64,000 nt of DNA from an uncultured Halobacteriales archaeon (GTDB lineage Archaea; Thermoplasmatota; E2; JACPAO01; JAHFTW01): positions 12,175 to 76,174 of the forward strand of contig CAZVJB010000011.1 in assembly GCA_964627625.1 (NCBI GenBank), written 5' to 3'. The notes beneath the pieces are model-generated. The model was not told where the DNA came from, ran no database searches, and was given only the letters and a program-made list of their open reading frames with translations. Shown in pieces: positions 4,013-64,000 of the stretch (position 1 is the first letter of the stretch; the number at the start of each line of letters is the position of its first letter). Made by a program: the position numbers and the translations under genes.

Positions 4013-4592
4013 GCCGTGCGGACATTTCATGTCCATAGTGATAAAGCAAGGATCCCAGCGATAGCTGCCCAGCCTGCAGCCGCCCGGCCTGCCACGACGA
4101 AGCCACGCTTCCAGTACGCCAAACTTCCCTTACGGACCTCTGAGCGCCAAGCGCATGCCAGGCGTGGATTGTGACTGGAGGGCTCCGTTACATGGACGAA
4201 CGTGGTCAATCCGCTATGTGGCCGGCTAGAATTTCGTGCTCCAGCAACTGTTCCAGTCTGCGCGCGCCGCCTGAAGGAAGTCCGCAGGATGTTCAATCTG
4301 GAGACCCCAGTGGATTTCGAGGCACCGGTAAACGTGCCCGAGGCGCTTTGGCGCGTCGCCAGGCCTCTTGATATGAGCTAGATGTCTCCTTGGAAGTACT
4401 TTGGCAGACGCCCGATTTCAATGCCCGGATGCTTGGAGGCATCCCCAATGGCCATGACGGCCTGCCAGCTTGGCAACTGCATGACCTCATCTACCACCGC
4501 CGTCGGGACGCCGCTGGGCAAATTTTTGCCGGCCCAATCCAACAGGTGCCCGACAGCTTCGACCGCATCTCAGCGCCGCAATAGGGGCGCAG

Positions 4593-7500: not shown

Positions 7501-8147
7501 CCTGGAATTGGCCTGACCGGCCCGGTGGCTGGAGCCCCGACGGTACGCGGTTCCAGGTAAGCGATGCCACGACCATTCGGGAATTGTTCAAGATTGGGTG
7601 GAGCAAGGATTTCTTGGCGGATTGGGAATGGATACCGCCCGGCTCTGACGGGCTGCTAACCAGCTGGGAGCGACTGCACATCAGCCAACTCGTCCTGAGG
7701 CCGACACGACCCATCGCGGGCGCCGACGGATTGCCGTCTTTCTTCCTGTGGACGCCCTCAAGGCGACCCGCCGAGGGTGGCGACGAGGGCGACCAGGCGA
7801 TTGGATTCGGAACGAGCCCAGGTGTGGCCGTCACGTTGGACGCCGACATCCTGGAACATCGCCGGACGCTCCGAATCGGCGAGAGCAGCGAATTTGACTG
7901 GCAACAGGAAGTCAACCGAGAAATCTGGAAGGCGGTAGCCGAAATACAACTTCAGGACTTCGAGGGCCAAGTCACGGTAAGTCCCACTTTTTCGATGCTG
8001 GAAATCATTGACAGCCCGATTCGTGACAACATAAGGGCCGGCAAGTGGTGGCTCCGAAGCGTGGGTGCGTTGCCCTTCGAATTGGGAAGCGCCGGCCTAG
8101 GCAGCGAAGGCATCCACGGGCTCAACCGCACTCGACTGTTCCCATAG
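4593..8147 (+). CDS. Large hypothetical protein (1184 aa), first gene of a three-gene cluster upstream of the Rhs toxin
   Basis: A long uninterrupted ORF with balanced, globular-looking composition. No signal peptide, TM segment or recognisable catalytic motif. The overlapping antisense ORFs are Arg/Ser/Pro-rich GC artefacts. Confidence 0.6.
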   Translation: MTFYPVQEYEAGRHGEGPAASAAFEMLDQNGGFGEELVKFVAALHGGLSTAVDAIASNLLFVRSEFGPLPYPIHLLHIDVGGGVIENLLDIDDDGQPDLGVTVTPEFSVADPGGGSGLGLRGVHIAIRTMPEGRILSGLRLDLGVRLGQTHALDGPFTDARQIGEYVVVRLEAPSGPFPERLKATLRIHQDGEEGTAGYTSRIIGYVESRMPGIAPPGATLAIGHWTWKGPTRPVEPRVPPRFGLPDSIRRVIRVPNESSEPDAHDELVAEIVRPEAAPNLFGLPAELHPGGAPLDPGIRFDYSETVLQATPTKTTRFSIRVDSIGIGLRLTTIEHPKNKAFGMRSNRLPTRVEIDYDPMRSWELPQFIYTANDTLGDFDMRAEDPDGASALRHMAIRAAEVPVRIGLRLGGNAGADAPLRVFGSDSDNVYKPMPSALGRFVVVGGRDIGTLPPAERRVTKRDFIPGLDVNVPWPAHAITFDLDDTPPSSVLPARMVAGAQDLVYLRVEERPTHAQDAQHVDRWDAELVHADEGAGLVVDLRRAPTLRPGVGTGTERPLRLQVYKVPAPTVAEKEHASRLIVRAGSIPDRLVIDYKHVAAQSPADSDYVGLRVSGGECKHVQALFVDKPAEKTDLLGAGRISVAMPNTPHGFVDVARDHDGALQVTSSETVQAFAGLALSRGLDAEGDFQGLLKRMVMHASLPPTPDDGAAPSLRISASAGTLAVSSAGVGTSGRIALGETLLLSVRATPQAVAKQVLACVPRPAHLEGGEGGFISRLLRLLGRLRVPSLGECRQGFELQPKLGALSARVIGLRELELTSNPENIPGHLPAGGSEEGMRIRATFSEGRVNRAFRFLLGDVWKPRDRPLEEYRAVKFRAAGVPETVAFSFLKGSPLNSSQLRKPSIVHLDLSERSGEAELVLEQPEIAYEFLRRGVQVGRGVTMLSIDSLPRRMVITQLFDERYAPGLTWPWNWPDRPGGWSPDGTRFQVSDATTIRELFKIGWSKDFLADWEWIPPGSDGLLTSWERLHISQLVLRPTRPIAGADGLPSFFLWTPSRRPAEGGDEGDQAIGFGTSPGVAVTLDADILEHRRTLRIGESSEFDWQQEVNREIWKAVAEIQLQDFEGQVTVSPTFSMLEIIDSPIRDNIRAGKWWLRSVGALPFELGSAGLGSEGIHGLNRTRLFP

Positions 8148-8154
8148 GTGATGC

Positions 8155-9544
8155 ATTGCTGAAACTCATTCTACACCACACATACAACAATGGCCGCGCC
8201 ACTGACGTCTCCGGCCACGACAACCACGGCGTGGCCCTGCGCGTCACTTCGGTCGGCTCGTCCCTGCGCCTCCTTGGGGGAGCCAGCGAGATTCGAGTCC
8301 CGCCATCACCTTCTCTTGCCGGCCTCAACGCGGTTCGCGTCCGCCTGCGTTTCCGTTGGGAACCCAGCCAGGGGGCAAACCTCCGGACAGGCATGACCCT
8401 CGTCAAGGGTGACGCCTCGTTCTTCATCTTCGTCACGAAGAACCGCCGACTCCACGCCGGAATCCTCGATGCCAGCGGCGTGATGAACGGGGTCCTGAGC
8501 GAAGCGGTCATCGATGCGCATCGCTGGCATGAATTGGAGTTCCGCCACGACGGCATGGCCAGCGCCCAGATGGTGCTCGACGGCCAGCTGGTTGCCCAAA
8601 GGGACGACATCCAAGGCCCCGTTCGGAGCGTCGGCCCCGGCGGCATTGTAATCGGTCGCTGGGATGTGTTCCAGGGATCCATCGAACCACCAAACCCAGA
8701 AATCTTCGACCCAAACCTCTTCGGCTTCGTTGGCCAAGTCGATGACTTCCGACTAGACAAAGAATACATCGACAGGGACGGCCTCCTTGACCCCTGCTGC
8801 AATGACGGGCCGACATTAGGCCAAGCTATTCGCTCCAACGAAAGGAGTCCGGATGGCGCCAAGCCGCGAGCCGTCCTTGTAACGCTCCGGGCACTGGAGT
8901 CCCAAGTTCGCGCGCAGGCGATTGCAGGTGACCCCACGCGCTCGGCTCGCATTCGCGGCCTCGCGACCCGCGGCGGGAGAGCAATCGCTGAAAAACGACT
9001 GCCGGCAGCGCTAGCCATCGCCAGCGAAGCCCTTCAATTCCTTCGTGAACGGATGACCCAGCAGGAAATCGAAGCGTTCCAGGCTCGGGCAATCGACGCC
9101 ATAGAGGCCACCCCTCAAGCAGCCCCGCTTGCACGATACCGCCGTACCAAGGACGCGAAAGATCTTGAGCCCTTCCGACCGCTGGCCGCAGCTCTTTGCC
9201 GGCCCCTGCCTACGGATGGTCAATCCGGCCCTCCGGTGACCGGAGAGACATTAGGAATGCATGACTTGCGCCTACCGGCCCCGGCTCGGGCCGCGGCGAC
9301 AATTAGGGACTCTTCCTCTCCTACCATGTCTAGCATCGGCAGCAGGCCGTTGGTACCATCTTCTATCCGACAGGACCTGGGCGGGGCTCCCCACCCTTCG
9401 ACGGGTGCGCAATCTACTTCGGACAAACCTGGCTTCCCGCGCAAGCCGAGCGGGAGGAAACGCCGGAAGCATCGCCATCGCCATCGATGCAGATGCTGCT
9501 GTCACTGCAGGCCCTCGCGCGGCCCATCCAACAACCCAAGGTGA
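8155..9544 (+). CDS. LamG/concanavalin-A-like lectin-fold domain protein with a disordered basic C-terminal tail
   Basis: The pattern RVRLRFRWEP...LVKGDASFFIFVTKNRRLHAGILDASG...HELEFRHDG...MVLDGQLVAQRD...IVIGRWDV resembles a laminin-G-like jelly roll. The start is ambiguous: TTG near 8155 or Met at 8387. The ORF overlaps the 3' end of the upstream gene. The Lys/Arg/His/Cys-rich tail may be partly non-coding. Confidence 0.45.
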
Positions 9545-19700: not shown

Positions 19701-22293
19701 AGATGCGCGCGGCTTTATCATGCCTGACCCCGCCGATATGTATGACGGATTCATCAACGTCGATGGAAACCTCGTCACACATACCTACGACGGGCAGAAC
19801 CGCCTGATCGAAACGAAGCGCGAACTGCGCAAGGACGGAACGAGCACAAGCACTCTTACGGCCTACATTTTCACGAGGCAAGAATGGGACGCAAACGGCA
19901 ACCTGGCCTCCATGACGGACGATGCAGGCCACAAGACCGTCTATGACTACGACCGCCAGGGCCGCCTCGTCGCGGAAACGTTTGCAGATGGCACGCAGAC
20001 TGAACACGAATACGATGCTGCGGGTAACCTGGTCAAGCGCGAAGACGCGCTCGGCAACGTAATCAAAGTAGAGTACAGCCCAGGAAGAAGCGCCGTTCGC
20101 GTAAATGTAGCAGGGCCTGCCACTCGTTCGACCCTGCAATCCTTCGAATACGACGGCCTTGGCAGGATGACGCGCGCCTCGGACAACAACGACCCTTCGA
20201 CGACCGTGGACGACGCCATCGATTCCTTCACGTATGATTCGATGTCCGAAACGGTCCTACAGGTCCAGAACGGCAAGACCGTTTCGCGTGCCCACGATGG
20301 ATTAGGCTCCGTCACGAGCCTCGTGTACCCAAACGGCCGCACCGTGACGAAGGAATATGATGCGCTTGCACGCTTAACCGAGGTCCTGGATGATACTGGC
20401 CCGCTGGAGACATACACCTATGGGACCGGCCGGCTGGTATCCAAACTAGCGGGCAATGGCGCTCTGACCGAATTCACTTATGACAGTAACCGCCGGGTCG
20501 CATCAATTGCGACGCCCGACGTCTGGGACTATGACGTCGAGTTCCAATACGAATATGACCGCAATGGTCAGGCCACGAGTGTAGACATGCCGCATGCGCC
20601 GCTTTGGGGCAGCACCTTTTCCTATGATTCCGCCGGCCGGCTCACGAGCGCCGAAAAGGTTGTCCACACGACACCGGCGTGGTGGTACCAGTTACCGCGC
20701 GACACGATGGCGTCGCGAACCGACTGGACTCTGGATACGACGAACAATTGGGTCGGCGTCTCCGTCCAACGTGATGGGGAGGCTACAGTCAATCAAGCGC
20801 GGACGCATGGCCCCCTGGACCAACTCACGTCGACGACGGTGAGTGAAGTCAAAACGCAAGTGACGCATGACGTCGTCGGCAATCGGCTGGCGGACGCCAA
20901 GTACACGTATACGTGGGATGCTTTCAATCGCCTACGAACCGTTTCGCAGGCGACGACGGGCTTCCAGATTGCGATGTATACGTATGATGCACTTGATCGC
21001 CGCGTCTCTAAGGCAGTTTCTGGCATCACGACGACCTACATCTATGATGGCGCTAACGTTATCGAAGAACGCACCTGGGCCGACGTCGTTCTGCGGCAGT
21101 ACGTGCACGGCAGCGGCGTCGACGAGCACCTGGTCATGGATCGAGACCTCAACGGCGACGGAACAGCAACTGGTGCTGGCGACCAGCGGCTCTATTTCGT
21201 GCAAGACCGGCTTGGCAACGTCGTTGGCCTCATGGATTCCGCGGGCTGGTTCAAGGAAGGGTATCTGTACGAGCCGTATGGCCAAATGGTCATCGTCCAA
21301 CCCGGCCTCGACACCGTGCTTAATTGGGGCGAAGACGATGTCATCGCAGCAACCTCGGCTTACGACAACCCCTACTCGTATACGGGTCAACGCGTTGACC
21401 AAGAGACGGGCCTGTACTACTACAGAGCCAGGTACTACGACGCCGATAGTGGACGATTTCTTAGCCGGGACCCTATCGGCATCTGGAAGGACTCAGGCAA
21501 CTTCGGGAACGGATACGCATATGCGGGTTCGAACCCCGTCATGTTCAGTGACCCATCGGGATTGTGCTTCATCATCTGTGATGGATGCGGGGTCATGGAC
21601 CTTGTTTGCGGCCTTCATGAGACCTTCAATCCGAATGGCGAATGCATGCTTACGGACAATCTCTGGTGCCATCCGGAATGTGGTAACTTCGACTTGACGT
21701 GCGAGATTCCAGCGTCAATCAACGATTGTATGCAACCCAAGAACGGATGGGAGGCGACGGGGTGCATCGTGACGGGGGTTGCTGTGGCCACTATTGCGTG
21801 TCATTTCTCGACGACATGCCTCCAGCTTGCCAGAGCGACGTGGACAAGATGGGGGGCTCCCCTGATTACCGGAATCGTGAATTTCTTCAAGGGGCCGGGC
21901 GACGACGCGGTCACTGCAACCGTGGCCTCAACGTCTCGGTACTCAGGCCTACGCGAAATAGGGGCCAATTTGTGGGAGTCCGTCAAGGGGCTTCGGTACG
22001 GGCCCGATCGAATTTGGGGAAATCGTGCGGAGCACGTGATAGGGGGCCATACTCCGGGCGGGGCAGGGACCGCCGGAAAAACGGTTTTTAATGTAGGTAA
22101 AGATCACGTTTTCTCGCTGATTGATGATGCGTGGGCCATGAAGGGGGCTGGGACGGTACAAAGCAATGGCAACACCTTGTATCGCGTAGATATGGGCAGA
22201 ACTATTGGGACGGGCGGTGAAAGGTTTATCGACATCATCGTCAGGACAGGTAGTTCGGACCTTATCACGGCATTTCCCCGGGGGGGAATTTGA
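13756..22293 (+). CDS. Giant Rhs/YD-repeat polymorphic toxin (~2845 aa): signal peptide, poly-Pro, Cys-rich DxDxDG repeats, FN3 domains, YD-repeat shell, Rhs core (DPxGL), C-terminal toxin domain
   Basis: There are dozens of YD-repeat units (YDPYGRQLS, TYDMSGRI, YEYDYGGRI, YFYDGFGHL, FTYDSNRRV...). The Rhs core ends RARYYDADSGRFLSRDPIG...YAYAGSNPVMFSDPSGL. Four CxDxIDNDxDGxxDxxDPxC repeats are present, plus FN3-like units (DWSVPTSDGGSPITGYEVFG, ATWSPPASDGGYAITKYSFYRG). The start is moved from the track's 13471 to an in-frame GTG at 13756, giving a Sec-like signal peptide (M)PRPRIARVVGLTALCFILASTAAEA. Confidence 0.85.
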   Translation: MPRPRIARVVGLTALCFILASTAAEATPIAPNLESPANNAHLPDPWDCDPKGPWNEAWDDACVFYSWDQGGWSPCRPDGTYELHYWETKGFGSAYKWDDSGTCHLEVTDGWIGCEVFWTVRFQDSSGWSPNSPVFRWTIGDEDDCSNTSPPPPPPPPPPPPPPAPGDAPDCGDEIDNDGDGYIDWAGIDSSGIDSDPSCLGHWWVESEDPWNAPPPPTSPPSACNDGIDNDSDGYTDDHDPRCDYNHMSTESPADPPPPPPPCDDEIDNDDDGMTDADDPACAFYPYDTESPINPLPSCQDEVDNDSDTLIDSEDPGCDYSPAYADESRPPPGPTPVAWVSVKCGYAPGHIIITYGVEGVHDSAQLGRRVTGSGVAPSSVNGASPVLDSYTVIGTEYDYQLTVRYNGDVFTSSAIARIYAGRIPDAPALEANAGPTAGTIDVNWSTGGGWCEPHTYNLYGSMHPTSGYAKIANRLTPTSFTEQDVSPNTWRFYRVTASNSIGESPLSNIGYARTLDLPNAPTVTVTPGDKQLAVDWSVPTSDGGSPITGYEVFGAKPGNPMELLAEPETPGITHDSLEYDETWNYEVRAVNDVGPGPPGEGTGKTWGVPEAPKHFVGNPGPAASEIEATWSPPASDGGYAITKYSFYRGTSAGSTTFVADITDLTDLSYDDTGLAGGTTYYYEVTATNEASEGPPAKAMATPPQRPLPPRDLTAGVPGAGVKLDWLPPMWNGGSPLTTYTAYASPDGLTYTAVGTVAPGTLTYTAVPCAASCTYYMTASNVFGESDRSNIVPQNIPLQKESIRGTTPGSGAGLKQGFPCVNPAKETVNLVSGQFVASMCLMHARSEYKGLNVSIVATHRAESTGKDFIGNNWYLSVNRRLEIVDTGIILTSGTGRTDGFLAAGPGTYTPPPGFYDRLAAIPSGFLLEHVGGVKEYFDGTGLRTRVEDVSGNTVEFRHDTSGKLYEITDAHGRITRLDYDQEKLVKITDFSDRITTLAYDAAGNLETITLPSDDEPSEATYGFTYTNRNAIATAQDPNENVYMENDYDASGRVAEQTNVDGTFTFAYEPSAHKTTVTDKNGNIVEWGYKAAQPLPLYQTVYMNREVSPDQPTTQMTRFTTNENLEITQVSAPDGIVTKFAFDVGNPNPIAQGNVVREELLPPAGSTLPPLVTTFTYESLYQNVKTITPPEGNDPNYAPQNGGSWSASRYTTTFYYGQDETTLSQDLNLDGITTGSEGLLVRVTRPELNAAGPPAAGMAGGNQEQVECWIYNDQGQVIQHIATDGRLTNHVYEDGFLLETTEGGAMALPTCEAAPPPMMAAMAAPTNFPSDVPETPTEGLRTSHFSHDAVGNLISFTDPSGRTTKYEVDALDRVTRILMPGPLKADVKITYDANGNVISTQTRNVAQAVDGSISLDPDNEYLVDSFAYNALDQKVEEWLTAARPTGSVDSNTPTSVHQKYGYDKNGNLIILRKTNSVAGTDGNDAETYIYNERNELIANTRGGLNPLFTHIEANAGVDVDDLTDPFALYLHTRDNVQTAVTCVVSKTQPIDVTQVTKASQCAPNSLCTTTPKEILGGMNVTLGPPPIVGTGTPECIKAALRNPMNQTWPQDPRLQTAPPLLPNAGSGIGLVPGYMPLSDATMTWEYNGAYSFSDVRLSAVFWALPYEASTSSTIAWKVRVYSGNILVASNDQVTGTAFPAPTGNQAREYRISMNAASFAGSNLRLEIEAMSGQARLVLFDSPGAPSRLEIGNAVTTSTTYDVGGRVTSTTDGGGAQTSYSYDPYGRQLSTVNPTGTRTTSTYDMSGRIITAEAYGALGGIGWHTETMATVLLQRMHMRYDEAGRLFQSDVARFDPATGASLPDVGLTPGDGFATTQYEYDYGGRITKKTDDNAASHTYFYDGFGHLVSETDAGGNTAQYVYNANGQPIKATTTETYPGASGTETSSTTALFSYDDAGHLVRAVDNAGNARRNGYDSRGNLAWESDARGFIMPDPADMYDGFINVDGNLVTHTYDGQNRLIETKRELRKDGTSTSTLTAYIFTRQEWDANGNLASMTDDAGHKTVYDYDRQGRLVAETFADGTQTEHEYDAAGNLVKREDALGNVIKVEYSPGRSAVRVNVAGPATRSTLQSFEYDGLGRMTRASDNNDPSTTVDDAIDSFTYDSMSETVLQVQNGKTVSRAHDGLGSVTSLVYPNGRTVTKEYDALARLTEVLDDTGPLETYTYGTGRLVSKLAGNGALTEFTYDSNRRVASIATPDVWDYDVEFQYEYDRNGQATSVDMPHAPLWGSTFSYDSAGRLTSAEKVVHTTPAWWYQLPRDTMASRTDWTLDTTNNWVGVSVQRDGEATVNQARTHGPLDQLTSTTVSEVKTQVTHDVVGNRLADAKYTYTWDAFNRLRTVSQATTGFQIAMYTYDALDRRVSKAVSGITTTYIYDGANVIEERTWADVVLRQYVHGSGVDEHLVMDRDLNGDGTATGAGDQRLYFVQDRLGNVVGLMDSAGWFKEGYLYEPYGQMVIVQPGLDTVLNWGEDDVIAATSAYDNPYSYTGQRVDQETGLYYYRARYYDADSGRFLSRDPIGIWKDSGNFGNGYAYAGSNPVMFSDPSGLCFIICDGCGVMDLVCGLHETFNPNGECMLTDNLWCHPECGNFDLTCEIPASINDCMQPKNGWEATGCIVTGVAVATIACHFSTTCLQLARATWTRWGAPLITGIVNFFKGPGDDAVTATVASTSRYSGLREIGANLWESVKGLRYGPDRIWGNRAEHVIGGHTPGGAGTAGKTVFNVGKDHVFSLIDDAWAMKGAGTVQSNGNTLYRVDMGRTIGTGGERFIDIIVRTGSSDLITAFPRGGI
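14203..14250 (+). repeat. CCG/CCA codon repeat encoding ~16 consecutive prolines inside the Rhs gene
   Basis: The sequence ccgccgccgccacctccgccgccgccaccgccaccgcctccc translates to SPPPPPPPPPPPPPPPPAPG. Confidence 0.8.
21565..22293 (+). other. C-terminal polymorphic toxin module of the Rhs protein: 12-Cys-rich segment followed by an unassigned ~110-aa His-containing domain
   Basis: It begins right after the DPSGL autoproteolysis-type motif: CFIICDGCGVMDLVCGLHETFNPNGECMLTDNLWCHPECGNFDLTCEIPASINDCMQPKNGWEATGC... then GNRAEHVIGGHTPGG...LYRVDMGRTIGTGGERFIDIIVRTGSSDLITAFP. No known toxin family recognised by eye. Confidence 0.6.
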
Positions 22294-38568: not shown

Positions 38569-39105
38569 ATGGCCTTCAGCGAGGAGCTCGACCTGAAGTT
38601 GCAGGATCTCGGTTTTTCTGCTCACTTCGCCCGTGTCCGCCGTTCCATCGATCGCTTCACGCACTTCGAGAACGAACCCATCTCGCGGGACGCCATGGAA
38701 GCCTTGGAGGACGACTTCCTCGATGCGGTCGAAGCTGTCCGGCACCTGTTCGATTGGGTCCGCAAGAATTTGCCCAGCGGCGTCTCAACCGCGGTACTGG
38801 ATGGAGTAACTCAGTTGCCAAGACAGCAGGCCGTCAAGGCCATTGGCGATGCCTCCAAGCATCGGGGCATTGAAGTTGGGCGTCTGCCGAAGTACTTTCA
38901 AGGGGACATCTGGCTGAAATCAAGCGGCCAAACGACGCGCTACGAGAGCCTCGGGGACTTCTACCGGCGCCTCGAAATCCACTGGGGCCCCCAGGTCGAA
39001 CATCCTGCTGATTTCCTACGGGCGGCCCTCGCAGACTGGGAACACCTGCTCGAGAAGGAAATCCTGGGCAGCCAAATAGCAGACCGACTACGCCCGCCCG
39101 AATAA
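38569..39105 (+). CDS. Hypothetical protein (~178 aa)
   Basis: The ORF is trimmed to the internal Met (MAFSEELDLKLQDLG...). Balanced composition, no recognisable motifs. Confidence 0.35.
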   Translation: MAFSEELDLKLQDLGFSAHFARVRRSIDRFTHFENEPISRDAMEALEDDFLDAVEAVRHLFDWVRKNLPSGVSTAVLDGVTQLPRQQAVKAIGDASKHRGIEVGRLPKYFQGDIWLKSSGQTTRYESLGDFYRRLEIHWGPQVEHPADFLRAALADWEHLLEKEILGSQIADRLRPPE

Positions 39106-39173
39106 CGTCGGCCGCCACTCACAATCCACGCCTGGAGAGCGCGACGGCATCTCATCGCCTCGATTCGCGCTGC

Positions 39174-50239: not shown

Positions 50240-50312
50240 TGGGTCTGACCAGATTTGAACTGGTGATATTCACCATGTCAAGGTGACGTCATAACCGCTA
50301 GACCACAGACCC
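50240..50312 (-). tRNA. tRNA-Val (anticodon GAC)
   Basis: The reverse complement folds by hand into a cloverleaf. Acceptor stem GGGTCTG/CAGACCC with discriminator A. D arm GTCT-AGCGGTTA-TGAC. Anticodon stem TCACC/GGTGA with loop TTGACAT. T arm ACCAG-TTCAAAT-CTGGT. No encoded CCA. Confidence 0.85.
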
Positions 50313-55913: not shown

Positions 55914-56037
55914 GCCGAAGCCAACGGCAGGCGATACATGAAGCCTGGGGGCCGCTGGTCGACGTCACCCGTGGAGACGACAACGCGGTCGAGTTCCACC
56001 GCGAAGGGATTATCCCGAAGCCCGGCGTCGCCGATTT

Positions 56038-56973
56038 GTGGCCGTGGTCGAATCACCCGAGGTGTTTGCAAAGTGGGCCACCGCGGGCAAGGTCTCCTTC
56101 GAGGCGCTACAACTTGGCCGTCGCCTGTGCGTGCCGGGCGCCCGGATGATCGACGTGGCTGCCGCCGTCGAGGGCCACATCAGCAAGGCGGGTCTCGGTC
56201 AGGCCTTTCCGTGCACCCTGTCGCTCAACGCCGTCGCGGCACATTACACGCCGACGCACGACGACCCCTCCGTTCTCAAAGAGGGCGATCTCGTAAAGTT
56301 GGACTGCGGCGCGGAACTCGATGGGGCCCTATCCGACAACGCCTGCACGGTGGAGGTCGGGGCGTCGCAGGACGGTCGCGGCGGCAAGTATGGTCGCCTT
56401 ATCGAGGCAAGTGAAGCGTGCCTGAAGGAAGCCATCCAAATCATCGGCCCCAACGTGGATCTTGGCACCGTGGGCGCGGCAATCGAATTCACGGCCAAGG
56501 ATTTCGGTTTCAAGGCCATCCAGAACCTCACCGGCCACAGCCTGGAGACGTTCAACCTGCACGCCGGGCTCACAGTTCCAAACGTCAAGATGAATGTCAA
56601 CAAGCGCCCCCGCATCGGCGACGTCCTGGCGTGCGAACCCTTCGTCACCGACGGCTCGGCCGGGCGCGTCGACAACTGCGGGCCCGGCAACATTTACCAT
56701 TACCAGCGCAGCCGGCCCCTCCGCCTGCCCACCATGAAGAAACTTCTCGCAACGGTGGAGAAACGCCACCCTAAACTGCCGTTTGCCGAGCGCTGGCTCG
56801 TGGACGCCATTGAGCCAGCCAAGTTGGGATTCAACTTGCAACAACTGCAGAAGGAAGCCCTGCTGAAGCACTACCCCGCGTTGGGCGAGGCCAGCGGTGG
56901 CATGGTGGCGCAGACGGAAGCGACGCTCGTCATCACGGAAGACGGGTGCGAAGTGACGACGAAGGCTGCCTGA
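56038..56973 (+). CDS. map: Methionine aminopeptidase, type 2 (archaeal)
   Basis: AFPCTLSLNAVAAHYTP, EGDLVKLDCGAELDGALSD, GHSLETFNLHAG and the overall pita-bread metal-ligand spacing (D, D, H, E, E positions). Confidence 0.85.
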   Translation: MAVVESPEVFAKWATAGKVSFEALQLGRRLCVPGARMIDVAAAVEGHISKAGLGQAFPCTLSLNAVAAHYTPTHDDPSVLKEGDLVKLDCGAELDGALSDNACTVEVGASQDGRGGKYGRLIEASEACLKEAIQIIGPNVDLGTVGAAIEFTAKDFGFKAIQNLTGHSLETFNLHAGLTVPNVKMNVNKRPRIGDVLACEPFVTDGSAGRVDNCGPGNIYHYQRSRPLRLPTMKKLLATVEKRHPKLPFAERWLVDAIEPAKLGFNLQQLQKEALLKHYPALGEASGGMVAQTEATLVITEDGCEVTTKAA

Positions 56974-57057
56974 CCCCCGCCCCGCCGGCTGAATCAATCG
57001 AGCGCACCGAAACCACCGACCCGACGAGAGACATCGCCGAGCGCCCCAGGGTCGGTA

Positions 57058-57175
57058 GGTCCTCCCGGCGAGGGGCCGAACAACCCGAGCGTAGCGATGG
57101 GCGTGTGAGTCGGGCGTGGCGGCAGCCGGGACGCACGCGAAGCGGCGCGAGGGGGCGTGGGCCGCCGGGAGGACC
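57058..57175. repeat. Repeat element copy A (118 bp) with 13-bp terminal inverted repeats GGTCCTCCCGGCG / CGCCGGGAGGACC
   Basis: Read directly from the sequence. The conserved 5' block GGTCCTCCCGGCGAGGGGCCGAACA, the central block GTGTGAGTCGGGCGTGGCG and the 3' block GCGTGGGCCGCCGGGAGGACC are shared with copy B. Confidence 0.6.
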
Positions 57176-57556
57176 TTAGGGGGCTTGCGTTTCGGCGGCA
57201 TCTTCGGCTTCAGCGGTTTCGTAGAGCGCGTTGGGCGCGCTGCGCTTGCCCGCCGCGCCCGCACATTCGATTCATAATGAAAAGGCGCCGTCGTCGTCGG
57301 AACGAAGGAAATCGGGCGCTAGCCGACTTCAAACGGGTTTTTAGCAAGCGCCCATCATGCGCGTCCGGCCTCGGGGGTTGCTCGCGAGCGAAGCGAGCAG
57401 ACGACGCCTCGCGCGAGCGGTAGCGATGCGCGAGGCACGAGAGGAGCCGGGCCCGCTCAGCGCGCGAAGCGCCGCTGTCGGGCAATGGCGAGCAGCCCCC
57501 GTCTCCTTCCGGGGGTGCGGGGGGCGAAGCTCCCCGCCGTCGGCTCACCCTGCGTT

Positions 57557-57600
57557 GGAAGATTAGGGTCCGAGCGAAGCGATGTACCCTAATCTTCCTC
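57557..57600 (-). terminator. Strong hairpin (13-bp stem) overlapping the stop codon of the small zinc-ribbon gene
   Basis: GGAAGATTAGGGT-N15-ACCCTAATCTTCC. It sits at the 3' end of the minus-strand gene 57589-57795. Confidence 0.3.
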
Positions 57601-57795
57601 TTCGTACTTCTTGTGCTCCTTGTTGGCACAGAAGCGCATGACGAAGCGGCCTTCGACGCGGTATTCCAGGCTGCGCGCGCAGTGGGGGCAGACGTGTTTC
57701 TTGACGCCGGGGCGCAGCACCGTGGCGGTGTCGTCGGGGTCCTCGTTGAAGAGTTCCTCCCCTGTGTCGTCTGTCTCCTCGAATTCCTCACCCAT
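57589..57795 (-). CDS. Small acidic zinc-ribbon protein (68 aa)
   Basis: CPHCARS...FCANKEH gives a CxxC...C..H metal-binding arrangement, with acidic N- and C-termini. Confidence 0.5.
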   Translation of the reverse strand: MGEEFEETDDTGEELFNEDPDDTATVLRPGVKKHVCPHCARSLEYRVEGRFVMRFCANKEHKKYEEED

Positions 57796-57863
57796 GGTGC
57801 ACCTTGGGACCCGGCGACGGACCCTGGCCTACCCCTTTTACCGTTGCGGTGCCAGGCATGGGC

Positions 57864-58556
57864 TCACTTTACCTGGATTTTGACGCCGCCGGAGGGGCCC
57901 GCCGTCTTGCTGACTGTGACGTCGAGAACCCCGTTGTTGTAGGTGGCCTTCGTGGTCTTGGGGTCGACGGCGGCTGGCAGTTTGACGCGCTTGTGGTACT
58001 TGCGGCGCTCGGTGTCGACGGAAATCTCGAGGTCGGTCTCGTTCATTTGCAGATCAATGTCCTCACGAGTGACGCCGGGAATCTCCATCGTGACGGCAAT
58101 CGTTGCACCGTCGTCGATCACGTCGGTCAAGGGTTCGCGTTCGTCGCTCACGATTGACGCAATGCCTTTGCCTTTTCCACCGGGCGCGGGCTTGACTTGC
58201 GGCTTGTTGCCGAACGTGTTGATTCTGGGCTTGCCGTCGGGCCCTACCTTGACTTGGAATCCACCGACGAAGGACTTGGACGGATCGGCGCCCCATTCCT
58301 TGAACGCCTCCTGGAGGTTGCGCTGCATCTCCTCGACGAGTTTCTTGAAATCGTTCGGGTCGATGCCCATGTTGCGGAACCAGGCTTCCATGTTAGCCAT
58401 GGGGTCTCCGCCCGAAAAGGGGCCGCCGGGGCCGAACGGGTTGCCGCCGGGAAACGCGCCGCCTGCGCCGAAGGGATTGCCACCGGGAAAGTTGGCCCAC
58501 GGGTCCGGCGACGGCGGCGACGGTGGCGATTTCGGAGGCGTCTTTGGCGTGGGCAC
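57864..58556 (-). CDS. Hsp20/alpha-crystallin small heat-shock protein with Pro/Gly-rich N-terminal extension
   Basis: The C-terminal ACD is EPLTDVIDDGATIAVTMEIPGVTREDIDLQMNETDLEISVDTERRKYHKRVKLPAAVDPKTTKATYNNGVLDVTV. The ending ...GVKIQVK is I-x-V-like. Confidence 0.8.
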   Translation of the reverse strand: MPTPKTPPKSPPSPPSPDPWANFPGGNPFGAGGAFPGGNPFGPGGPFSGGDPMANMEAWFRNMGIDPNDFKKLVEEMQRNLQEAFKEWGADPSKSFVGGFQVKVGPDGKPRINTFGNKPQVKPAPGGKGKGIASIVSDEREPLTDVIDDGATIAVTMEIPGVTREDIDLQMNETDLEISVDTERRKYHKRVKLPAAVDPKTTKATYNNGVLDVTVSKTAGPSGGVKIQVK

Positions 58557-58661
58557 GGCCTCACCATTGGGTATGTCGCTATTTGAGGCTCACGGCGAGG
58601 GCACCGCGTCGTGCGCGCCGCGCGCGAGGCTTCTTGAAGCCCCCCTTTCCTGCCGCCCCTG

Positions 58662-60191
58662 TTGCTTCGGCGCGTCCTTGTGGCCAACCGCTCGGAGATC
58701 GCTGTCCGCGTCATACGCGCCTGCCATGAGTTGGGCATCGGCGCCGTGGCCGTCCACTCGGAGGCGGACCGTGATGCCCTGCACGTAAAGATGGCCGACG
58801 CGTCCGTCCACATCGGCCCCGCTGCAAGCCGGCAGTCGTACCTCGTCGCGCAGAAGATTATCGATGCCGCAACGGCGCAGCGCTGCGACGCGGTCCATCC
58901 CGGGTACGGTTTCCTTTCGGAGAACGCCGCGTTTGCCCGAGAGGTCCTCAAGGCGGGCCTGGTCTGGATTGGGCCGCCTCCTGAGGCGATGGATGCAATG
59001 GGCAGCAAGGTTGCGGCGCGCGCCCATGCGCTTGCGGCGGGCGTCCCGGTCGCCCCGGGTTCTCTGACCCTGCGTAACACGGCCGCCGCGAAGCACGAGG
59101 CAAAGCGCATCGGCTACCCGGTCATCCTGAAGGCGGCACACGGTGGCGGCGGCATCGGGATGCGCGTCGTGCGGACGTCGGACCACATCGGGTCGCAGTT
59201 TGCAGCCGCAAGCGCCCAAGCACTTGCCGCGTTCGGTTCATCGGACGTCTTCGTCGAGAAATATCTCGAACGACCGCGCCACATCGAGGTGCAAATCCTG
59301 GGAGATGCGCACGGCAACGTCATTCACCTTGGCGAACGTGAATGTTCCATCCAGCGCAGACACCAGAAACTCGTCGAGGAAGCCCCGAGCCCTGCCCTGG
59401 ACGCGGCGCAAAGGGCCGAAATTGGCGCCAAGGCTGTTGCCTTAGCGAAGCGCGTTGGCTATCAGGGTGCCGGCACAATGGAGTTCCTCTACGAGCCGCC
59501 AGCGCCAAAAACCCGCAGCAAGACGCCCGGACGTACGCAGGGGCACTTTTACTTCAACGAGATGAACACCCGCCTGCAAGTCGAACACCCGGTCACGGAA
59601 TTAGTTACAGGCATCGACCTGGTCCAGTGGCAGCTGCGCATCGCCGGCGGCGAACGCCTCACAATCCGCCAAGAGGATGTGGTTATTCGTGGGCACGCGT
59701 TTGAGGCCCGCATCAATGCAGAAGAACCGGCCCGCGGCTTTGCGCCCAGCCCCGGGCCCGTACGCCGCCTTGTTTTGCCTTCCGGCCCGGGAGTCCGCGT
59801 CGACACCGGCTTGTACGAAGGTTGGACCGTTCCGAGTGATTACGACTCCCTTGTCATCAAGCTCTTGACGTACGCCTCCGACCGGCCGACGAACTGTTCC
59901 CGCATGCAACGCGCCCTGGCGGAGCTACGGGTGTCCGGTTTCTCGACCAACCGCGACTTTCATCGCTTGCTGTTTTCCCACCCACAATTCCGGCGCGGCG
60001 AACTCTCGACGCGGTTCCTGGAAGAACACGGCGTTGCCGAGGTCCTCGTCCGGGCCGCCCGCGTGCGCGCCGCCGCCGTCGCGGCCGCATTGGAGTCGTT
60101 CCCCGGCGGCCTTTCGGCGCTGCTCGTGCGCAACACCGGGCCCGCTCGCGTTGCCGACGGCGGCCGGCGCGATTGGGGGGCCGACACGTGA
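58662..60191 (+). CDS. accC: Biotin carboxylase subunit of acyl-CoA (acetyl/propionyl-CoA) carboxylase
   Basis: (M)LRRVLVANRSEIAVRVIRA, GYPVILKAAHGGGGIGMRVV and EVQILGDAHGNVIHLGERECSIQRRHQKLVEE are the ATP-grasp biotin-carboxylase signature. The start is probably TTG. Confidence 0.85.
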   Translation: MLRRVLVANRSEIAVRVIRACHELGIGAVAVHSEADRDALHVKMADASVHIGPAASRQSYLVAQKIIDAATAQRCDAVHPGYGFLSENAAFAREVLKAGLVWIGPPPEAMDAMGSKVAARAHALAAGVPVAPGSLTLRNTAAAKHEAKRIGYPVILKAAHGGGGIGMRVVRTSDHIGSQFAAASAQALAAFGSSDVFVEKYLERPRHIEVQILGDAHGNVIHLGERECSIQRRHQKLVEEAPSPALDAAQRAEIGAKAVALAKRVGYQGAGTMEFLYEPPAPKTRSKTPGRTQGHFYFNEMNTRLQVEHPVTELVTGIDLVQWQLRIAGGERLTIRQEDVVIRGHAFEARINAEEPARGFAPSPGPVRRLVLPSGPGVRVDTGLYEGWTVPSDYDSLVIKLLTYASDRPTNCSRMQRALAELRVSGFSTNRDFHRLLFSHPQFRRGELSTRFLEEHGVAEVLVRAARVRAAAVAAALESFPGGLSALLVRNTGPARVADGGRRDWGADT

Positions 60192-60673
60192 AAGCCTCGT
60201 TGCGCCTCGATGCCTCGGCACTAGACGTCGAGCTGACGCGGCGCCCGGACGGAACCTTTGTTGCGGTCGTCGAGGGCGAAAGTTTCGACGTCAGCGTTAC
60301 GGGTCTCGGCACAAAGCGCATCGCACGCATCGCCGGAACCAATATCGAAATTTCCTTCGCCCATGGCAAGTTGCAGGTCGACGGGGCGGACACGCCCTGG
60401 GCGATCTTGTCCGTCGAGCGTGCAGCCGCCGGCGGGCCGGGCGCACAGCACGGCTCGGCTCGTATTCGACCCCCCATGGCAGGAAAACTAGAGTCGGTCC
60501 GGGTACGAGCCGGCCAGGCCGTGCACAAGGGGGAAGTCTTGTTTGTCCTCGAGGCCATGAAGATGCAAAACGACGTGCGCTCGCCAGTGTCGGGCGTGGT
60601 GCGGGCCGTCCACGGGCGTGCCGGAGAAGCGGTGGAGACGAATCGAGTCATTGTGGATATCGAGCCAAAATAG
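60173..60673 (+). CDS. accB: Biotin carboxyl carrier protein (BCCP)
   Basis: The C-terminal biotinyl domain carries the EAMKM motif (VLEAMKMQNDVRSPVSGVV). The ORF overlaps the end of accC. Confidence 0.8.
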   Translation: MGGRHVKASLRLDASALDVELTRRPDGTFVAVVEGESFDVSVTGLGTKRIARIAGTNIEISFAHGKLQVDGADTPWAILSVERAAAGGPGAQHGSARIRPPMAGKLESVRVRAGQAVHKGEVLFVLEAMKMQNDVRSPVSGVVRAVHGRAGEAVETNRVIVDIEPK

Positions 60674-60756
60674 CGCAGCCCAACAGAGGCGGCGGCCCAT
60701 GGCAACGGCCGGGCCAAGTCGTTTCCTTGAAATGGCCGCAAGCATCTGTCGCGACC

Positions 60757-62355
60757 ATGACAGGACGCAGGACCCAGCCCAACACGACCGAAGCACCCGC
60801 GCCTGACGCCAAGGTCCTGCCGACGCGAGAAACAGCGCTGCTGGAAGCCATCGCTCGCCTGCAACAAGGCGGCGCCGCGAAGTACCGCGAGAAATTGGCC
60901 GACGAGGGCAAACTGTTCGTGCGCGACCGGCTGCGCCTGTTCTTCCCCGACGGCCTCGCCTACGAGGACGGACTCTTCGCCAACAACCAGAAGGCCAACG
61001 AGGGTTTGGCCGCAGACGGCATGGTGACCGGGGCAGGCCGGATGGGAGAGCGGACGGTCATGGTCATCGCTAACGACTACACCGTCAAGGCTGGAAGCAT
61101 GGCCGAGCGCGGCGTCGAAAAGTTCCTGCGTGTCCAGGAGCGCGCGCTCCGGGTCCAGAAACCCATCCTGTACCTCATTGATTCGTCAGGGGCGCGCATC
61201 ACCGACCAGGCCGGCTTCTTCGCCAACAACCGCGGCATTGGCAAATACTTCTACAACCACTCGATTCTATCCGGCAAGATTCCGCAGATTTCCGTCCTGT
61301 ATGGCCCCTGCGTTGCCGGCGCGGCCTACACGCCAGTATTCTGCGACTTCAGCATCATGGTCCGCGGCATGTCCGCATTGTGCATTGCTAGCCCACGCAT
61401 GGTCGAGATGGTAACCGGCGAGAAAATCACGATGCAGGAATTGGGTGGCGCCGACTTCCACATGACCGAATCCGGCTCGTGCCACCTTGTGGTCGACTCC
61501 GAAGACGAAGCCGCGGAAGCTGTCTGGCGCCTCTTGTCTTACCTGCCGGACAACTGCGATAACCGGCCCGCGCGCTTTGCCGCGGAAGAACCGGAACGCA
61601 GCCCGACCGAGTTGGAGCGCATCGTGCCGGCCGACCCGAACAAGGCCTTCGACATGCACGACGCCATCGCGACCATCGTTGACGGCGGATCCTGGTTCGA
61701 ACTCAAGGCGGGCCACGCCCAGGAGCTCGTGACGGGCCTTGCACGCGTAGGCGGCATCGTAGCCGGAATCGTGGCGAACAACACCGCACACCGGGCAGGC
61801 GCCATCTTCCCGCAGTCCGCCGACAAGGCCGCAGAATTCATCCTCACCTGCGACGCCTACAACATCCCCCTTCTGTACCTGTGCGACACGCCGGGATTCA
61901 TGGTCGGCTCCGCCGTCGAGGCGCAAGGCATCCTAAAGCGCGGCAAGAAATTCATCTACGCCACGAGCACTGCAACCGTGCCGAAGCTGTGCATCGTCAT
62001 CCGCAAGGCCTACGGGGCAGGCATCTACGCCATGTGCGGGCCCGCGTTCGAACCCGAAGCCACGCTGGCACTACCTGGAGCAGAAATCGCAGTGATGGGC
62101 GCCGAAGCGGCCATCAACGCCGTGTACGCCAACCACATCGCCAAAATCGAGGACCAAAAGGAGCGCGCCAAATTCATCGCCGACAAACGCGCCGAATACA
62201 ACCGCGACGTCGACATCAACGTGGCCGGCAACGACCTCATCGTCGACCACATCGTCCCGCCGAGCCAACTCCGCAAGGAAATCATCGCACGCCTGGAAGT
62301 GGCAAGCACCAAACACTTGCCGCTGCCGAGGAAGGGGCATGGGACCGTGATTTAG
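60757..62355 (+). CDS. pccB: Carboxyltransferase subunit (propionyl-CoA carboxylase beta / methylmalonyl-CoA carboxyltransferase family)
   Basis: GKLFVRDRLRLFFPDG, VMVIANDYTVKAGSM, ILYLIDSSGARI, GPCVAGAAYTPVFCDF and LCDTPGFMVG match the family. The ATG at 60757 is frame-checked against the stop at 62353-55. The track's 5' extension to 60034 overlaps BCCP and is rejected. Confidence 0.85.
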   Translation: MTGRRTQPNTTEAPAPDAKVLPTRETALLEAIARLQQGGAAKYREKLADEGKLFVRDRLRLFFPDGLAYEDGLFANNQKANEGLAADGMVTGAGRMGERTVMVIANDYTVKAGSMAERGVEKFLRVQERALRVQKPILYLIDSSGARITDQAGFFANNRGIGKYFYNHSILSGKIPQISVLYGPCVAGAAYTPVFCDFSIMVRGMSALCIASPRMVEMVTGEKITMQELGGADFHMTESGSCHLVVDSEDEAAEAVWRLLSYLPDNCDNRPARFAAEEPERSPTELERIVPADPNKAFDMHDAIATIVDGGSWFELKAGHAQELVTGLARVGGIVAGIVANNTAHRAGAIFPQSADKAAEFILTCDAYNIPLLYLCDTPGFMVGSAVEAQGILKRGKKFIYATSTATVPKLCIVIRKAYGAGIYAMCGPAFEPEATLALPGAEIAVMGAEAAINAVYANHIAKIEDQKERAKFIADKRAEYNRDVDINVAGNDLIVDHIVPPSQLRKEIIARLEVASTKHLPLPRKGHGTVI

Positions 62356-62639
62356 TGACGCCGCCAGACGCCGAGGCCCTGCCACGGCCGCGACCTATTC
62401 GTCAGACGGCAGCCTACCTGCAATTGGCCCTGCTGTGGCGTGCGCCCCGCTCCAGGCGCATCCTCATCGCCTTTGATGCCTTTTACGGCCTCTTGACGGT
62501 CGCCATCGTTGCATTCGCACTGATGGGTTCGCCGTTGGACATGACTGGCCTTCAATGGACCATCTTCGGCTGCATCCTGGCGTTTGGTGTCATCTTGAAC
62601 ATGCAGGTGATTCGCGCGGTCCGAATGTTTCCTGCCTGA
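62355..62639 (+). CDS. Possible small hydrophobic protein encoded immediately after the carboxyltransferase gene
   Basis: A GTG overlaps the pccB stop. The product has two hydrophobic helices (ILIAFDAFYGLLTVAIVAFALM; WTIFGCILAFGVILNM). This is weak coding evidence. Confidence 0.3.
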   Translation: MTPPDAEALPRPRPIRQTAAYLQLALLWRAPRSRRILIAFDAFYGLLTVAIVAFALMGSPLDMTGLQWTIFGCILAFGVILNMQVIRAVRMFPA

Positions 62640-62756
62640 GCGCCGGCAGCCGAGCCGCATCCACGCCCGCGTCCGCCGAACGCGCCGAACGAGGGCCTGG
62701 GATTTCGGGGAGTGCATTGCGATTCTGGGGAATCATGCGCAACCCACCGTGCGCTA

Positions 62757-62888
62757 GGTCCCCCCGGCGAGGGGCCGAACAGCCGCCGCCACGCGAAGCG
62801 ACGGCCGGCGGGTATGTGAGTCGGGCGTGGCGATAGCACCCCGCACGCGTCGCAGCGTCGTGCGGGCGCGTGGGCCGCCGGGGGGACC
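62757..62888. repeat. Repeat element copy B (132 bp) with terminal inverted repeats GGTCCCCCCGGCG / CGCCGGGGGGACC
   Basis: It has the same three conserved blocks as copy A. The T-to-C change in the left arm is matched by an A-to-G change in the right arm, so the 13-bp pairing is preserved. Confidence 0.6.
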
Positions 62889-63133
62889 AATCCGAGGAGA
62901 AATGCGTCTGGTCGTTCCGGCTTGCGGCAGCCCGCGGCGGCCCTCGCCCGCGCTCGCTTCGCGTCGCGGGCTTGCCATGCCCTCGCGTCGCCATGTCGTC
63001 TCGCCTTCGGCTCGTCGGCTGCCGTGCTCGCCCCGACCGGGCGCCCCAAGTCCAAATCTTGCCATTCCTTCAGCACGGCGACGACGCCGTCGGAGGACTG
63101 CGGGAATGGCGCTCTAGCCAATTTCAAGCAGGC

Positions 63134-63169
63134 TTCCGTGCGTTCCGTGATTTTCCGTGACTTCCGTGT
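63134..63169. repeat. Four tandem ~10-bp TTCCGTG-containing repeats upstream of the gene at 63197
   Basis: cttccgtgcg ttccgtgatt ttccgtgact tccgtgtt is directly visible. Confidence 0.4.
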
Positions 63170-63196
63170 TCGATTGATCGTAAGAGGCGAAGATTC

Positions 63197-63589
63197 GTGC
63201 AATTCGCGCAAGGAATGTTGCCCTGGCTCATGGAACAACGGCTCCGGGATTCGAAGCCCAAGTTTTTCCCAGCATCCTCCTTCCATTCCTTTGTGCGCCG
63301 CCTCCGCCTGATGCTCGCCAAGGGGTGGCAACCGGCGCTGGCCTTGCTGAACGTCCTGCCCCTGCCCGGGCTCGGCGCAATCGTCGTCGGCCGCCGCAAC
63401 GCGCACACTAAACTGCTGCGCAACGGCATCCTCCAAACCGTCCTCGTGATTTTCGGCTCCTGGCCGCTCGTTGTCCCCGGCGCCCTTGGTTTTGGGTGGG
63501 CAATCGTCGATGCGGTTCGCATCGCAAGGGCGCGTCTTATCGTCCCCCCCACTAAAATGCAGGCCGATTCGCCCGTCGAAACCACATAG
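63197..63589 (+). CDS. Small membrane protein (possible TM2-like domain)
   Basis: Two hydrophobic helices (LALLNVLPLPGLGAIVVG; ILQTVLVIFGSWPLVVPGALGFGWAIV) with a G/W-containing pattern reminiscent of TM2-domain proteins. Confidence 0.4.
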   Translation: MQFAQGMLPWLMEQRLRDSKPKFFPASSFHSFVRRLRLMLAKGWQPALALLNVLPLPGLGAIVVGRRNAHTKLLRNGILQTVLVIFGSWPLVVPGALGFGWAIVDAVRIARARLIVPPTKMQADSPVETT

Positions 63590-63610
63590 CCCGGCGCCGT
63601 GCCGCCCTGT

Positions 63611-64000
63611 ATGCCAGACAAACCCGTCATCCTCCTGACAGGTTGTTCCTCAGGAATCGGGCGCGAAGCGGTCCACCACTTGGCCAAGGCGGGAGCCCTC
63701 GTCATCGCGACCGCCCGCCGTCCCGACACCATCGCCGACCTCGCCGTCCCCGGTGAAATCGAATGCCTGCCGCTGGATGTCGCCGACGAGACCAGTCGCG
63801 CCGCCTGCGTCGCTGAGGTCCTGCAGCGCTTCGGTCGCATCGACGCGCTCGTCAACAACGCCGGGTACGGCGCCAACCTCACGGTCGAGGACATGCCCAC
63901 CGACCGGCTGCGCGCCATGTTCGAGGTCAACCTGTTTGGTGCGCACGATTTGACGCGTCGCGTCCTGCCCGGAATGCGGGAGCGCCGCAGCGGCCGCATC
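63611..64000 (+). CDS. Short-chain dehydrogenase/reductase (SDR), 5' partial (runs off window end)
   Basis: MPDKPVILLTGCSSGIGRE (the TGxxxGIG Rossmann motif), then ...RIDALVNNAGYG (NNAG). There is no stop before the window end. Confidence 0.7.
   Translation, partial: MPDKPVILLTGCSSGIGREAVHHLAKAGALVIATARRPDTIADLAVPGEIECLPLDVADETSRAACVAEVLQRFGRIDALVNNAGYGANLTVEDMPTDRLRAMFEVNLFGAHDLTRRVLPGMRERRSGRI

Follow-up and report, generated by a model that had tools for sequence, protein, structure and literature searches.

Two copies of a palindromic repeat in the genome of a Thermoplasmatota archaeon

The window analysed here is a 64,000-nt stretch of an 80.8-kb NCBI contig, and all coordinates refer to window positions, on the + strand unless given otherwise. 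The best matches of its type II methionine aminopeptidase (MetAP) and of its PccB are in Thermoplasmatota metagenome-assembled genomes (MAGs), and these neighbouring genes identify the host as an uncultured Thermoplasmatota archaeon. The window holds two copies of a short, GC-rich palindromic repeat, copy A (core 57058–57175) and copy B (core 62757–62888), which we tentatively read as a non-autonomous mobile element. The MetAP gene (56038–56973, + strand) stops 84 nt before the start of copy A. Copy A is followed by about 400 nt of GC-rich, hairpin-rich spacer, by a 68-aa zinc-ribbon gene (57589–57795) and hsp20 (57864–58556), both on the minus strand, and by accC (58662–60191), BCCP (60173–60673), pccB (about 60760–62355) and a 94-aa open reading frame (ORF; 62352–62639, + strand), whose stop lies 117 nt before the start of copy B. 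On the 3′ side of copy B come, in order, a second, unrelated repeat, a 124–130 aa ORF and a short-chain dehydrogenase gene. An earlier note on this DNA had described the copies as flanking the acyl-CoA carboxylase operon; accC, BCCP and pccB are indeed enclosed, together with the zinc-ribbon gene, hsp20 and the small ORF, which that description left out. The two intergenic gaps that host the copies are unusually long (615 nt, 56974–57588, and 557 nt, 62640–63196), with a GC content of about 70% compared with 61% in the window.

Direct reading of the sequence bears out the geometry given in the earlier note. Copy A spans 57056–57177, with a core of 118 nt at 78% GC, and copy B spans 62755–62890, with a core of 132 nt at 79.5% GC; both are intergenic and lie on the + strand, 5,699 nt apart from start to start. 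Each copy is closed by a perfect 13-bp terminal inverted repeat (13 of 13 bp complementary), here termed helix P1, and the terminal-repeat sequence at the element ends is GGTCCYCCCGGCG. Specifically, the left arm of P1 in copy A (GGTCCTCCCGGCG, 57058–57070, + strand) pairs with the right arm at 57163–57175 (CGCCGGGAGGACC, + strand), while the left arm in copy B (GGTCCCCCCGGCG, 62757–62769, + strand) pairs with the right arm at 62876–62888 (CGCCGGGGGGACC, + strand). The sole difference among the 26 stem positions is the mirrored T-to-C and A-to-G change to which the earlier note had drawn attention: the pair T57063–A57170 of copy A is C62762–G62883 in copy B, and Watson-Crick pairing is kept.

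The copies share three blocks on the + strand, which are identical save for the mirrored pair. Block 1 comprises 27 nt at the 5′ end (TAGGTCCYCCCGGCGAGGGGCCGAACA; A 57056–57082, B 62755–62781), block 2 comprises 18 central nucleotides, identical in both copies (TGTGAGTCGGGCGTGGCG; A 57104–57121, B 62815–62832), and block 3 comprises 21 nt at the 3′ end (GCGTGGGCCGCCGGGRGGACC; A 57155–57175, B 62868–62888). Every block occurs exactly twice in the window, even with up to 3 mismatches allowed. The similarity between A and B is beyond chance by blastn (E = 2e-19) and nhmmer (E = 6e-36 and 3e-30), and a covariance model recovers the copies at 131.6 bits (A) and 140.1 bits (B). Identical columns make up 96 of the 137 in the alignment, with exact runs of 19, 18 and 15, and the mismatches are strongly clustered, since none of 20,000 column shuffles matched the summed length of the three longest runs. 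With indels of 12, 3 and 1 nt, the copies have no frame-preserving relation; a coding sequence was thus rejected, and the element has no coding capacity.

The similarity between the copies starts at CGNTA-GGTCC, 5 nt before the left arm, and stops at GGACC, with the last base of the right arm. Outside these limits, local alignment scores of the flanks fall within the range of shuffled sequence, both downstream (32, against a shuffle maximum of 36) and upstream (16, against 24). Segmental duplication is ruled out by the unrelated flanks, and the unrelated flanks and sharp inverted-repeat boundaries together argue that a bounded unit has been placed at two sites.

Searches for further copies and known families

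To count copies, we built a covariance model from copies A and B and applied it, with filters off, to the window and all related loci. Coverage of the same genome amounts to 68.5 kb, namely the window and 4.5 kb beyond its end (contig L191, described below). In the window, the model finds A and B alone (132 and 140 bits), the next best hit scoring 13.5 bits, and it finds no third copy in the 4.5 kb of the same genome past the window end; nhmmer likewise returns no copy besides A and B. A two-block pattern, AGGGGCCGAAC N{10,40} TGAGTCGGGCGTGG, gave zero matches in GTDB species-representative genomes and in JGI metagenome contigs, from which it follows that the window's own genome is not in those two collections. 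The 17-mer of block 2 matches at least 113 loci in GTDB species-representative genomes, and all of the matches listed are chance matches without the other blocks, including one in a Thermoplasmata MAG that sits within other sequence. The 19-mer of block 1 gave 27 chance matches in JGI metagenome contigs, scans of viral contigs with blocks 1, 2 and 3 gave chance matches or none, and blastn gave no match among phages and plasmids.

Known RNA families do not account for the copies. Rfam at gathering thresholds reports a single tRNA in the window (50240–50312, minus strand) and nothing at the copies, and at E <= 10 nothing overlaps the copies above 16 bits at either locus. Curated Rfam families (ribozymes, riboswitches, sRNAs, 5S, SRP, CRISPR repeats and others) are thereby set aside for lack of a covariance-model match, and a tRNA-like gene is ruled out because ARAGORN found no match in 56000–64000. 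A bacterial-type promoter or terminator was also rejected, after a scan that does not extend to archaeal promoter types. The earlier note had said that its view would be refuted if these two copies alone existed and differed at many other stem positions in related strains, or if they were fragments of a known non-coding RNA gene: two copies alone were found in the 68.5 kb, the relatives and the collections scanned, the relatives offered no copy for a comparison of stem positions, and no Rfam match identifies the copies as a known non-coding RNA fragment.

Relatives keep the genes and lack the repeat

For comparison, we used fetched loci with orthologous neighbours (about 84–91% protein identity), designated by L numbers. 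The site of copy A is empty in L001, L038 and L037, whose MetAP proteins are 90%, 89% and 91% identical to that of the window; the DNA 3′ of MetAP in these three loci consists of other genes or unrelated spacer. The site of copy B is empty in L183, the closest relative, which belongs to the 90%-identity PccB cluster of the window and has a Kelch-repeat gene after pccB, and it is empty in L180 and L181 (85%) and L182 (84%), which have different neighbours 3′ of pccB. The order of MetAP, the zinc-ribbon gene, hsp20, accC, BCCP and pccB is kept in relatives without the repeats, and the enclosed block is therefore resident DNA rather than cargo.

Three further features of the relatives' loci were recorded. 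Between hsp20 and accC, relatives carry 2–3 extra genes (L001 13764–19272, L038 8935 onward, L180 269–2903), encoding a ~700-aa protein, a LonB-like AAA protease and a 174- to 446-aa protein; the corresponding part of the window (58556–58662) has none of these genes and just a 105-nt gap, so that the hsp20–accC neighbourhood has been rearranged in this lineage. The MetAP–hsp20 spacer of L038 contains a 135-nt self-complementary palindrome (7192–7326). L038 also has 40-nt direct repeats, 90% identical (7135–7174 and 7712–7751), and the ~540 nt enclosed by them contain a fragment with homology to a 122-aa gene of L001.

Predicted folds and the compensatory pair

As predicted RNA, the + strand of copy A folds at −74.8 kcal/mol (z −4.7) and its minus strand at −60.6 kcal/mol; the corresponding values for copy B are −88.2 kcal/mol (z −4.0) and −80.6 kcal/mol. 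The predicted optimum of copy A is a rod-like imperfect palindrome, while that of copy B consists of P1 and two strong local hairpins. Imposing the RNAalifold consensus yields structures 18 kcal/mol (A) and 35 kcal/mol (B) worse than the copies' own optima, and forcing the copies into a hand-built three-way junction with unpaired conserved blocks raises the energy of each by about 20 kcal/mol. Judged from these models, the terminal helix would be the only structure clearly common to A and B, and no convincing internal fold emerges.

The segments between the blocks form different hairpins in the two copies. The variable inner hairpin of copy A (57084–57101, + strand; CCC-GAGCGTAGCGAT-GGG, with a GCGTAGC mini-hairpin cap) has little stability by itself (−5.9 kcal/mol, z about −0.35). 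Its counterpart in copy B (62783–62811, + strand; CCGCCGCC-A-CGCGAAGCG-A-CGGCCGGCGG) has a 12-nt insertion relative to A, a GCGAAGC cap and a predicted energy of −17.2 kcal/mol. In addition, copy B has a second strong inner hairpin (62840–62866, + strand; stem CCCGCACG / CGTGCGGG), and the equivalent stretch of copy A (57126–57156) forms a different, weaker hairpin with a GCGAAGC cap. Against shuffled sequences, the inner hairpins of copy A show no advantage (z about 0).

The earlier note had taken the mirrored change in P1 as the mark of a selected RNA or DNA hairpin. Stem pairing is indeed kept, and the conclusion drawn from it is weaker than stated. A single mirrored and complementary double change in a 13-bp stem has a rough p of about 0.013, that is, 13/325 for position times 1/3 for base, and two sequences are too few for covariation statistics. 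Moreover, template switching during replication in inverted repeats builds and mends hairpin stems and yields compensatory-looking changes in one event, with no need for selection (PMC8794818), and the copies have no common internal fold.

Hairpins and repeats in the surrounding intergenic DNA

In both copies the inner hairpins end in a GCGTAGC or GCGAAGC cap, on the + strand in every case, and the motif GCGNAGC is frequent in the two host gaps, where it occurs 7 times on the + strand against 0.75 expected from the window density (~9-fold) and 2 times on the minus strand. Within 500 nt, the + strand has three instances of a longer loop module, GAGCG(N)AGCGAT (57084–57101, 57406–57436 and 57557–57598), closed by unrelated stems of 3, 9 and 13 bp, respectively, a pattern for which we found no known counterpart. 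The hairpin at 57557–57598 has a perfect 13-bp stem, GGAAGATTAGGGT-[CCGAGCGAAGCGATGT]-ACCCTAATCTTCC. The 3′ end of the minus-strand zinc-ribbon gene (the last three codons and the stop) forms the right arm of this hairpin, and the final 10 nt of the gene recur, inverted, as the left arm. In L038, the end of the zinc-ribbon gene is present and the left arm is missing.

The GCGNAGC mini-hairpin is exceptionally stable as DNA and far less so as RNA, and such motifs have been described at single-strand priming sites of phages and plasmids and in one phage promoter (PMC13037366). The inner hairpins of A and B share the cap with these systems and differ in that no priming-site or phage-promoter context is evident here. 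The stability of the motif as DNA hints at a possible single-stranded DNA role for the element.

A second GC-rich intergenic repeat family, unrelated to the first, lies just 3′ of copy B (62895–63060, its start put at 47 nt downstream), with the core GGCGGCCCTCGCC...GCTCGCTTCG...GGCTTGCCAYGCCCTCGC...CCCCGACCGGCGGC. Three copies of this family occur within 12.9 kb in L038, at 7524–7720 (+), 5718–5921 (−) and 2122–2303 (−), with nhmmer E-values of 1e-29 to 1e-37. Nesting of copy B inside this family was rejected, because the alignment starts the family downstream of copy B. Taken together, the hairpin modules and the second family indicate that GC-rich hairpin repeats build up in the intergenic DNA of these genomes.

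Two Logan contigs from run SRR6868923, which samples the same population, carry genes identical to those of the window. One of them (L179, window 57733–62795) aligns with 100% identity over its full length; the other (L191, window 63080 to about 68461) has an identical 124-aa gene and was placed by gene coordinates, not by alignment. The assembly gap between them (62796–63079) begins 14 nt past block 1 of copy B and spans the second repeat family. That the gap covers most of copy B and the second repeat would fit repeats or hairpins breaking the assembly, which is only a hint; additional copies of a repeat, hairpins that vary among strains or a drop in coverage could each lie behind the gap.

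Interpretation of the element

We interpret the element as a lineage-specific, non-autonomous palindromic repeat that resembles a miniature inverted-repeat transposable element (MITE) or a foldback element, a reading to which we assign a probability of roughly 0.4. The earlier note had listed a MITE-like repeat, a small RNA family and a regulatory hairpin as candidates; the list was reasonable, and we favour the MITE-like repeat over a conserved non-coding RNA because the element is absent from both orthologous sites in relatives and has sharp repeat boundaries. Further points in its favour are that the unit is bounded, has perfect inverted repeats, is non-coding and intergenic, occurs in two unrelated contexts, has no Rfam match and has no common internal fold, and that the lineage has other small GC-rich intergenic repeats. 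Prokaryotic MITEs are typically intergenic, with stable stem-loop transcripts, and typically AT-rich (PMC10969869). The element is like them in its small size (118–132 bp), its non-coding and intergenic nature, its perfect terminal inverted repeats, its predicted very stable transcript stem-loop and its absence from the corresponding sites in relatives. It differs from them in having no target-site duplication, no known partner insertion sequence or transposase, two copies seen and 78–80% GC, and in an interior that is conserved block by block with rebuilt hairpins instead of being evenly decayed. The element thus looks and probably behaves like a MITE; we do not claim membership, as two copies make firm classing impossible.

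A good deal weighs against this interpretation. No target-site duplication is found on reading either copy (A ...GGTA/element/TTAGG, B ...GCTA/element/AATCC): both copies have TA on the left, with TTA on the right of A and AAT on the right of B. Such duplications can decay with age, so that a missing one is not decisive (PMC10969869). No transposase or integrase is present among the about 35 window ORFs scanned with Pfam, no larger element with the same ends (terminal repeat and subterminal block) occurs elsewhere in the window, and the known copies number two in 68.5 kb of this genome. The elements are at 78–80% GC compared with a window average of 61%, which does not sit well with the AT-richness typical of MITEs. 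The intergenic DNA of the relatives is unalignable to the window and too diverged to give a base-exact empty site. In addition, the + strand folds better than the minus strand, an asymmetry that a pure double-stranded DNA transposon does not need, and the uneven spread of the differences, with ~70 nt of identical sequence in three blocks and two rebuilt inner segments, would also be compatible with functional constraint on the blocks.

Bacterial REP/BIME elements (repetitive extragenic palindromes, REPs) are GC-rich palindromes just downstream of genes, mobilised by RAYT Y1 transposases. REP units are 20–40 nt long, have a conserved GTAG head (GTAG/CTAC) and occur in hundreds of copies; they are strand-specific and are thought to form hairpins at mRNA 3′ ends. 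The element resembles them as a GC-rich extragenic palindrome just 3′ of genes. Membership was nonetheless rejected: the unit is 118–132 nt long, the head is GTAG in copy A (57055–57058) and CTAG in copy B (62754–62757), there are two copies, no Y1 transposase domain or RAYT-like gene is found in the ORFs scanned, and the host is an archaeon.

If the MITE-like interpretation is correct, the unit would have inserted at both sites after the split from the relatives, moved by a transposase, or by a different strand-transfer activity, whose gene lies in another part of the genome. The arms might then stay complementary for either of two reasons: the ends may have to match as a pair or hairpin, or one arm may be copied from the other by intra-strand template switching. 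Inspected by eye, the DNA that separates the copies from the + strand genes upstream shows neither an oligo-T run nor an AT-rich stretch resembling a promoter, which suggests that read-through from the aminopeptidase gene and the pccB operon probably transcribes the element as part of their 3′ UTRs (untranslated regions). In such a transcript, the element would form a very stable hairpin (−73 to −88 kcal/mol) that could serve as a passive barrier or insulator at the 3′ end, a role proposed for the transcripts of bacterial REPs and MITEs.

Several other explanations bear on the same observations. The element could be a structured RNA confined to the lineage, either cis-acting within the 3′ UTRs of the upstream genes or processed from them as a small RNA, which we consider unlikely; it is just as doubtful that P1 gathers three conserved single-stranded or junction segments for binding a protein or ligand, with the variable hairpins as spacers. 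Such an RNA would account for the 100% conservation of three blocks alongside intervening segments that have given way to other hairpin-forming sequences, for the compensatory pair in P1 (and a possible second one, G-C to A-U at alignment columns 60/108 in the RNAalifold model), for the better folding of the + strand, the sense of both upstream genes (z −4.7 and −4.0), and for the position of the copies 84–117 nt 3′ of + strand ORFs. It has to contend with the lack of an Rfam family match, with a common structure that is energetically poor in both copies, with inner hairpins in copy A that score like shuffled sequence (z about 0) and with the fact that two sequences cannot carry covariation statistics. 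Direct reading shows no AT-rich, TATA-like sequence upstream on either strand, and relatives have orthologous MetAP and pccB without the element, which is therefore not a conserved regulator of these genes. Alternatively, local hairpin-generating mutation instead of transposition may have been at work, with template switching building GC-rich perfect stems around GCGNAGC cores and with the copies related by gene conversion or patch copying. This account, to which we would give little credence, draws on the excess of GCGNAGC on the + strand of the gaps (7 against 0.75 expected), on the recurrence of GAGCG(N)AGCGAT with three different stems, on the left arm of the 57557–57598 hairpin, an inverted zinc-ribbon gene end missing in L038, and on the finding that perfect stems and apparently compensatory changes can arise in one event (PMC8794818). 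The element is like template-switch hairpins in its perfect stems and in the paired 'compensatory' differences between related hairpins; template switching, however, is a mutational mechanism and not an element family, and it leaves unaccounted for the dispersal of a sharply bounded 118–132 nt unit to two sites 5.7 kb apart with unrelated flanks. Nor is exact conservation of three asymmetric, non-palindromic blocks expected from switching within a hairpin.

The copies have also been considered as recombination sites, either attL/attR-like sites or the MITE-flanked ends of a composite, bounding a 5.6-kb cassette with hsp20 and the acyl-CoA carboxylase genes. Direct repeats do flank a gene block here, MITE pairs flanking integrons are known (PMC10969869, Figure 3), and L182 has a phage-type integrase 1.5 kb 3′ of pccB. 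This explanation is very improbable: the enclosed genes are syntenic beside MetAP in relatives without the repeats and are resident rather than cargo, no duplication is seen outside the pair (GGTA to the left of A, AATC to the right of B), no integrase or transposase occurs in the ORFs scanned, and att sites have one contiguous core whereas here three blocks are split by variable hairpins. An attL/attR pair of an integrated element was excluded on the same synteny of the cargo, the division of the identity into three blocks and the lack of an integrase in the ORFs scanned. An integron attC site was excluded as well. Such sites have R″/L″...L′/R′ boxes (RYYYAAC ... GTTRRRY) beside cassettes and an IntI integrase; in the element, GCCGAAC near the 5′ end is only loosely like RYYYAAC, neither copy has GTTRRRY at the 3′ end, the ORFs scanned include no integrase and the enclosed 5.6 kb is a syntenic housekeeping block. 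The phage-type integrase of L182 (84% PccB identity) lies with several small unknown genes at 7165–8337, ~1.5 kb 3′ of pccB, and marks the region downstream of the carboxylase operon as an integration hot spot elsewhere in the clade.

In a bolder proposal, the three asymmetric blocks might be the functional core of a new, Thermoplasmatota-specific structured nucleic acid, either a 3′ UTR RNA or a + strand single-stranded DNA, within a wider, undescribed system of hairpins that have the GAGCG-N-AGCGAT loop (GCGNAGC core) on unrelated stems, one of them built by inverted duplication of a gene 3′ end; we regard this as distinctly improbable. Overall, the repeat is a genuine feature of the DNA, and the most likely explanation is an unremarkable one, a small palindromic repeat from a phylum that has received little study. 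As a MITE-like element, it would add a GC-rich palindromic repeat family without target-site duplications to Thermoplasmatota, for whose MITEs a limited literature search turned up no paper, and it would mark the gaps as sites of recent genome change beside a central carbon-metabolism operon. Such a result would be useful for annotation and for understanding breaks in MAG assemblies, and would not be surprising. It would carry more weight if the conserved blocks proved to be a functional RNA or single-stranded DNA motif, and the 'same loop, different stem' hairpins would be of interest if they reflect a specific hairpin-generating mechanism in archaea.

Other features of the window

Two further features of the window lie away from the copies. 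Positions 4151–4569 and 38722–39142 form an inverted repeat pair of ~420 nt, 73–84% complementary and 34 kb apart, and the arm at 38722–39142 lies inside a 207-aa ORF without a Pfam match that adjoins a DUF6602 protein; the pair could represent diverged paralogues or the ends of a larger element. A single + strand ORF of 2,941 codons occupies 13471–22293, contains short internal repeats (GACAATGA...GGCTACA, around 14270–14470) and probably encodes a giant surface protein.

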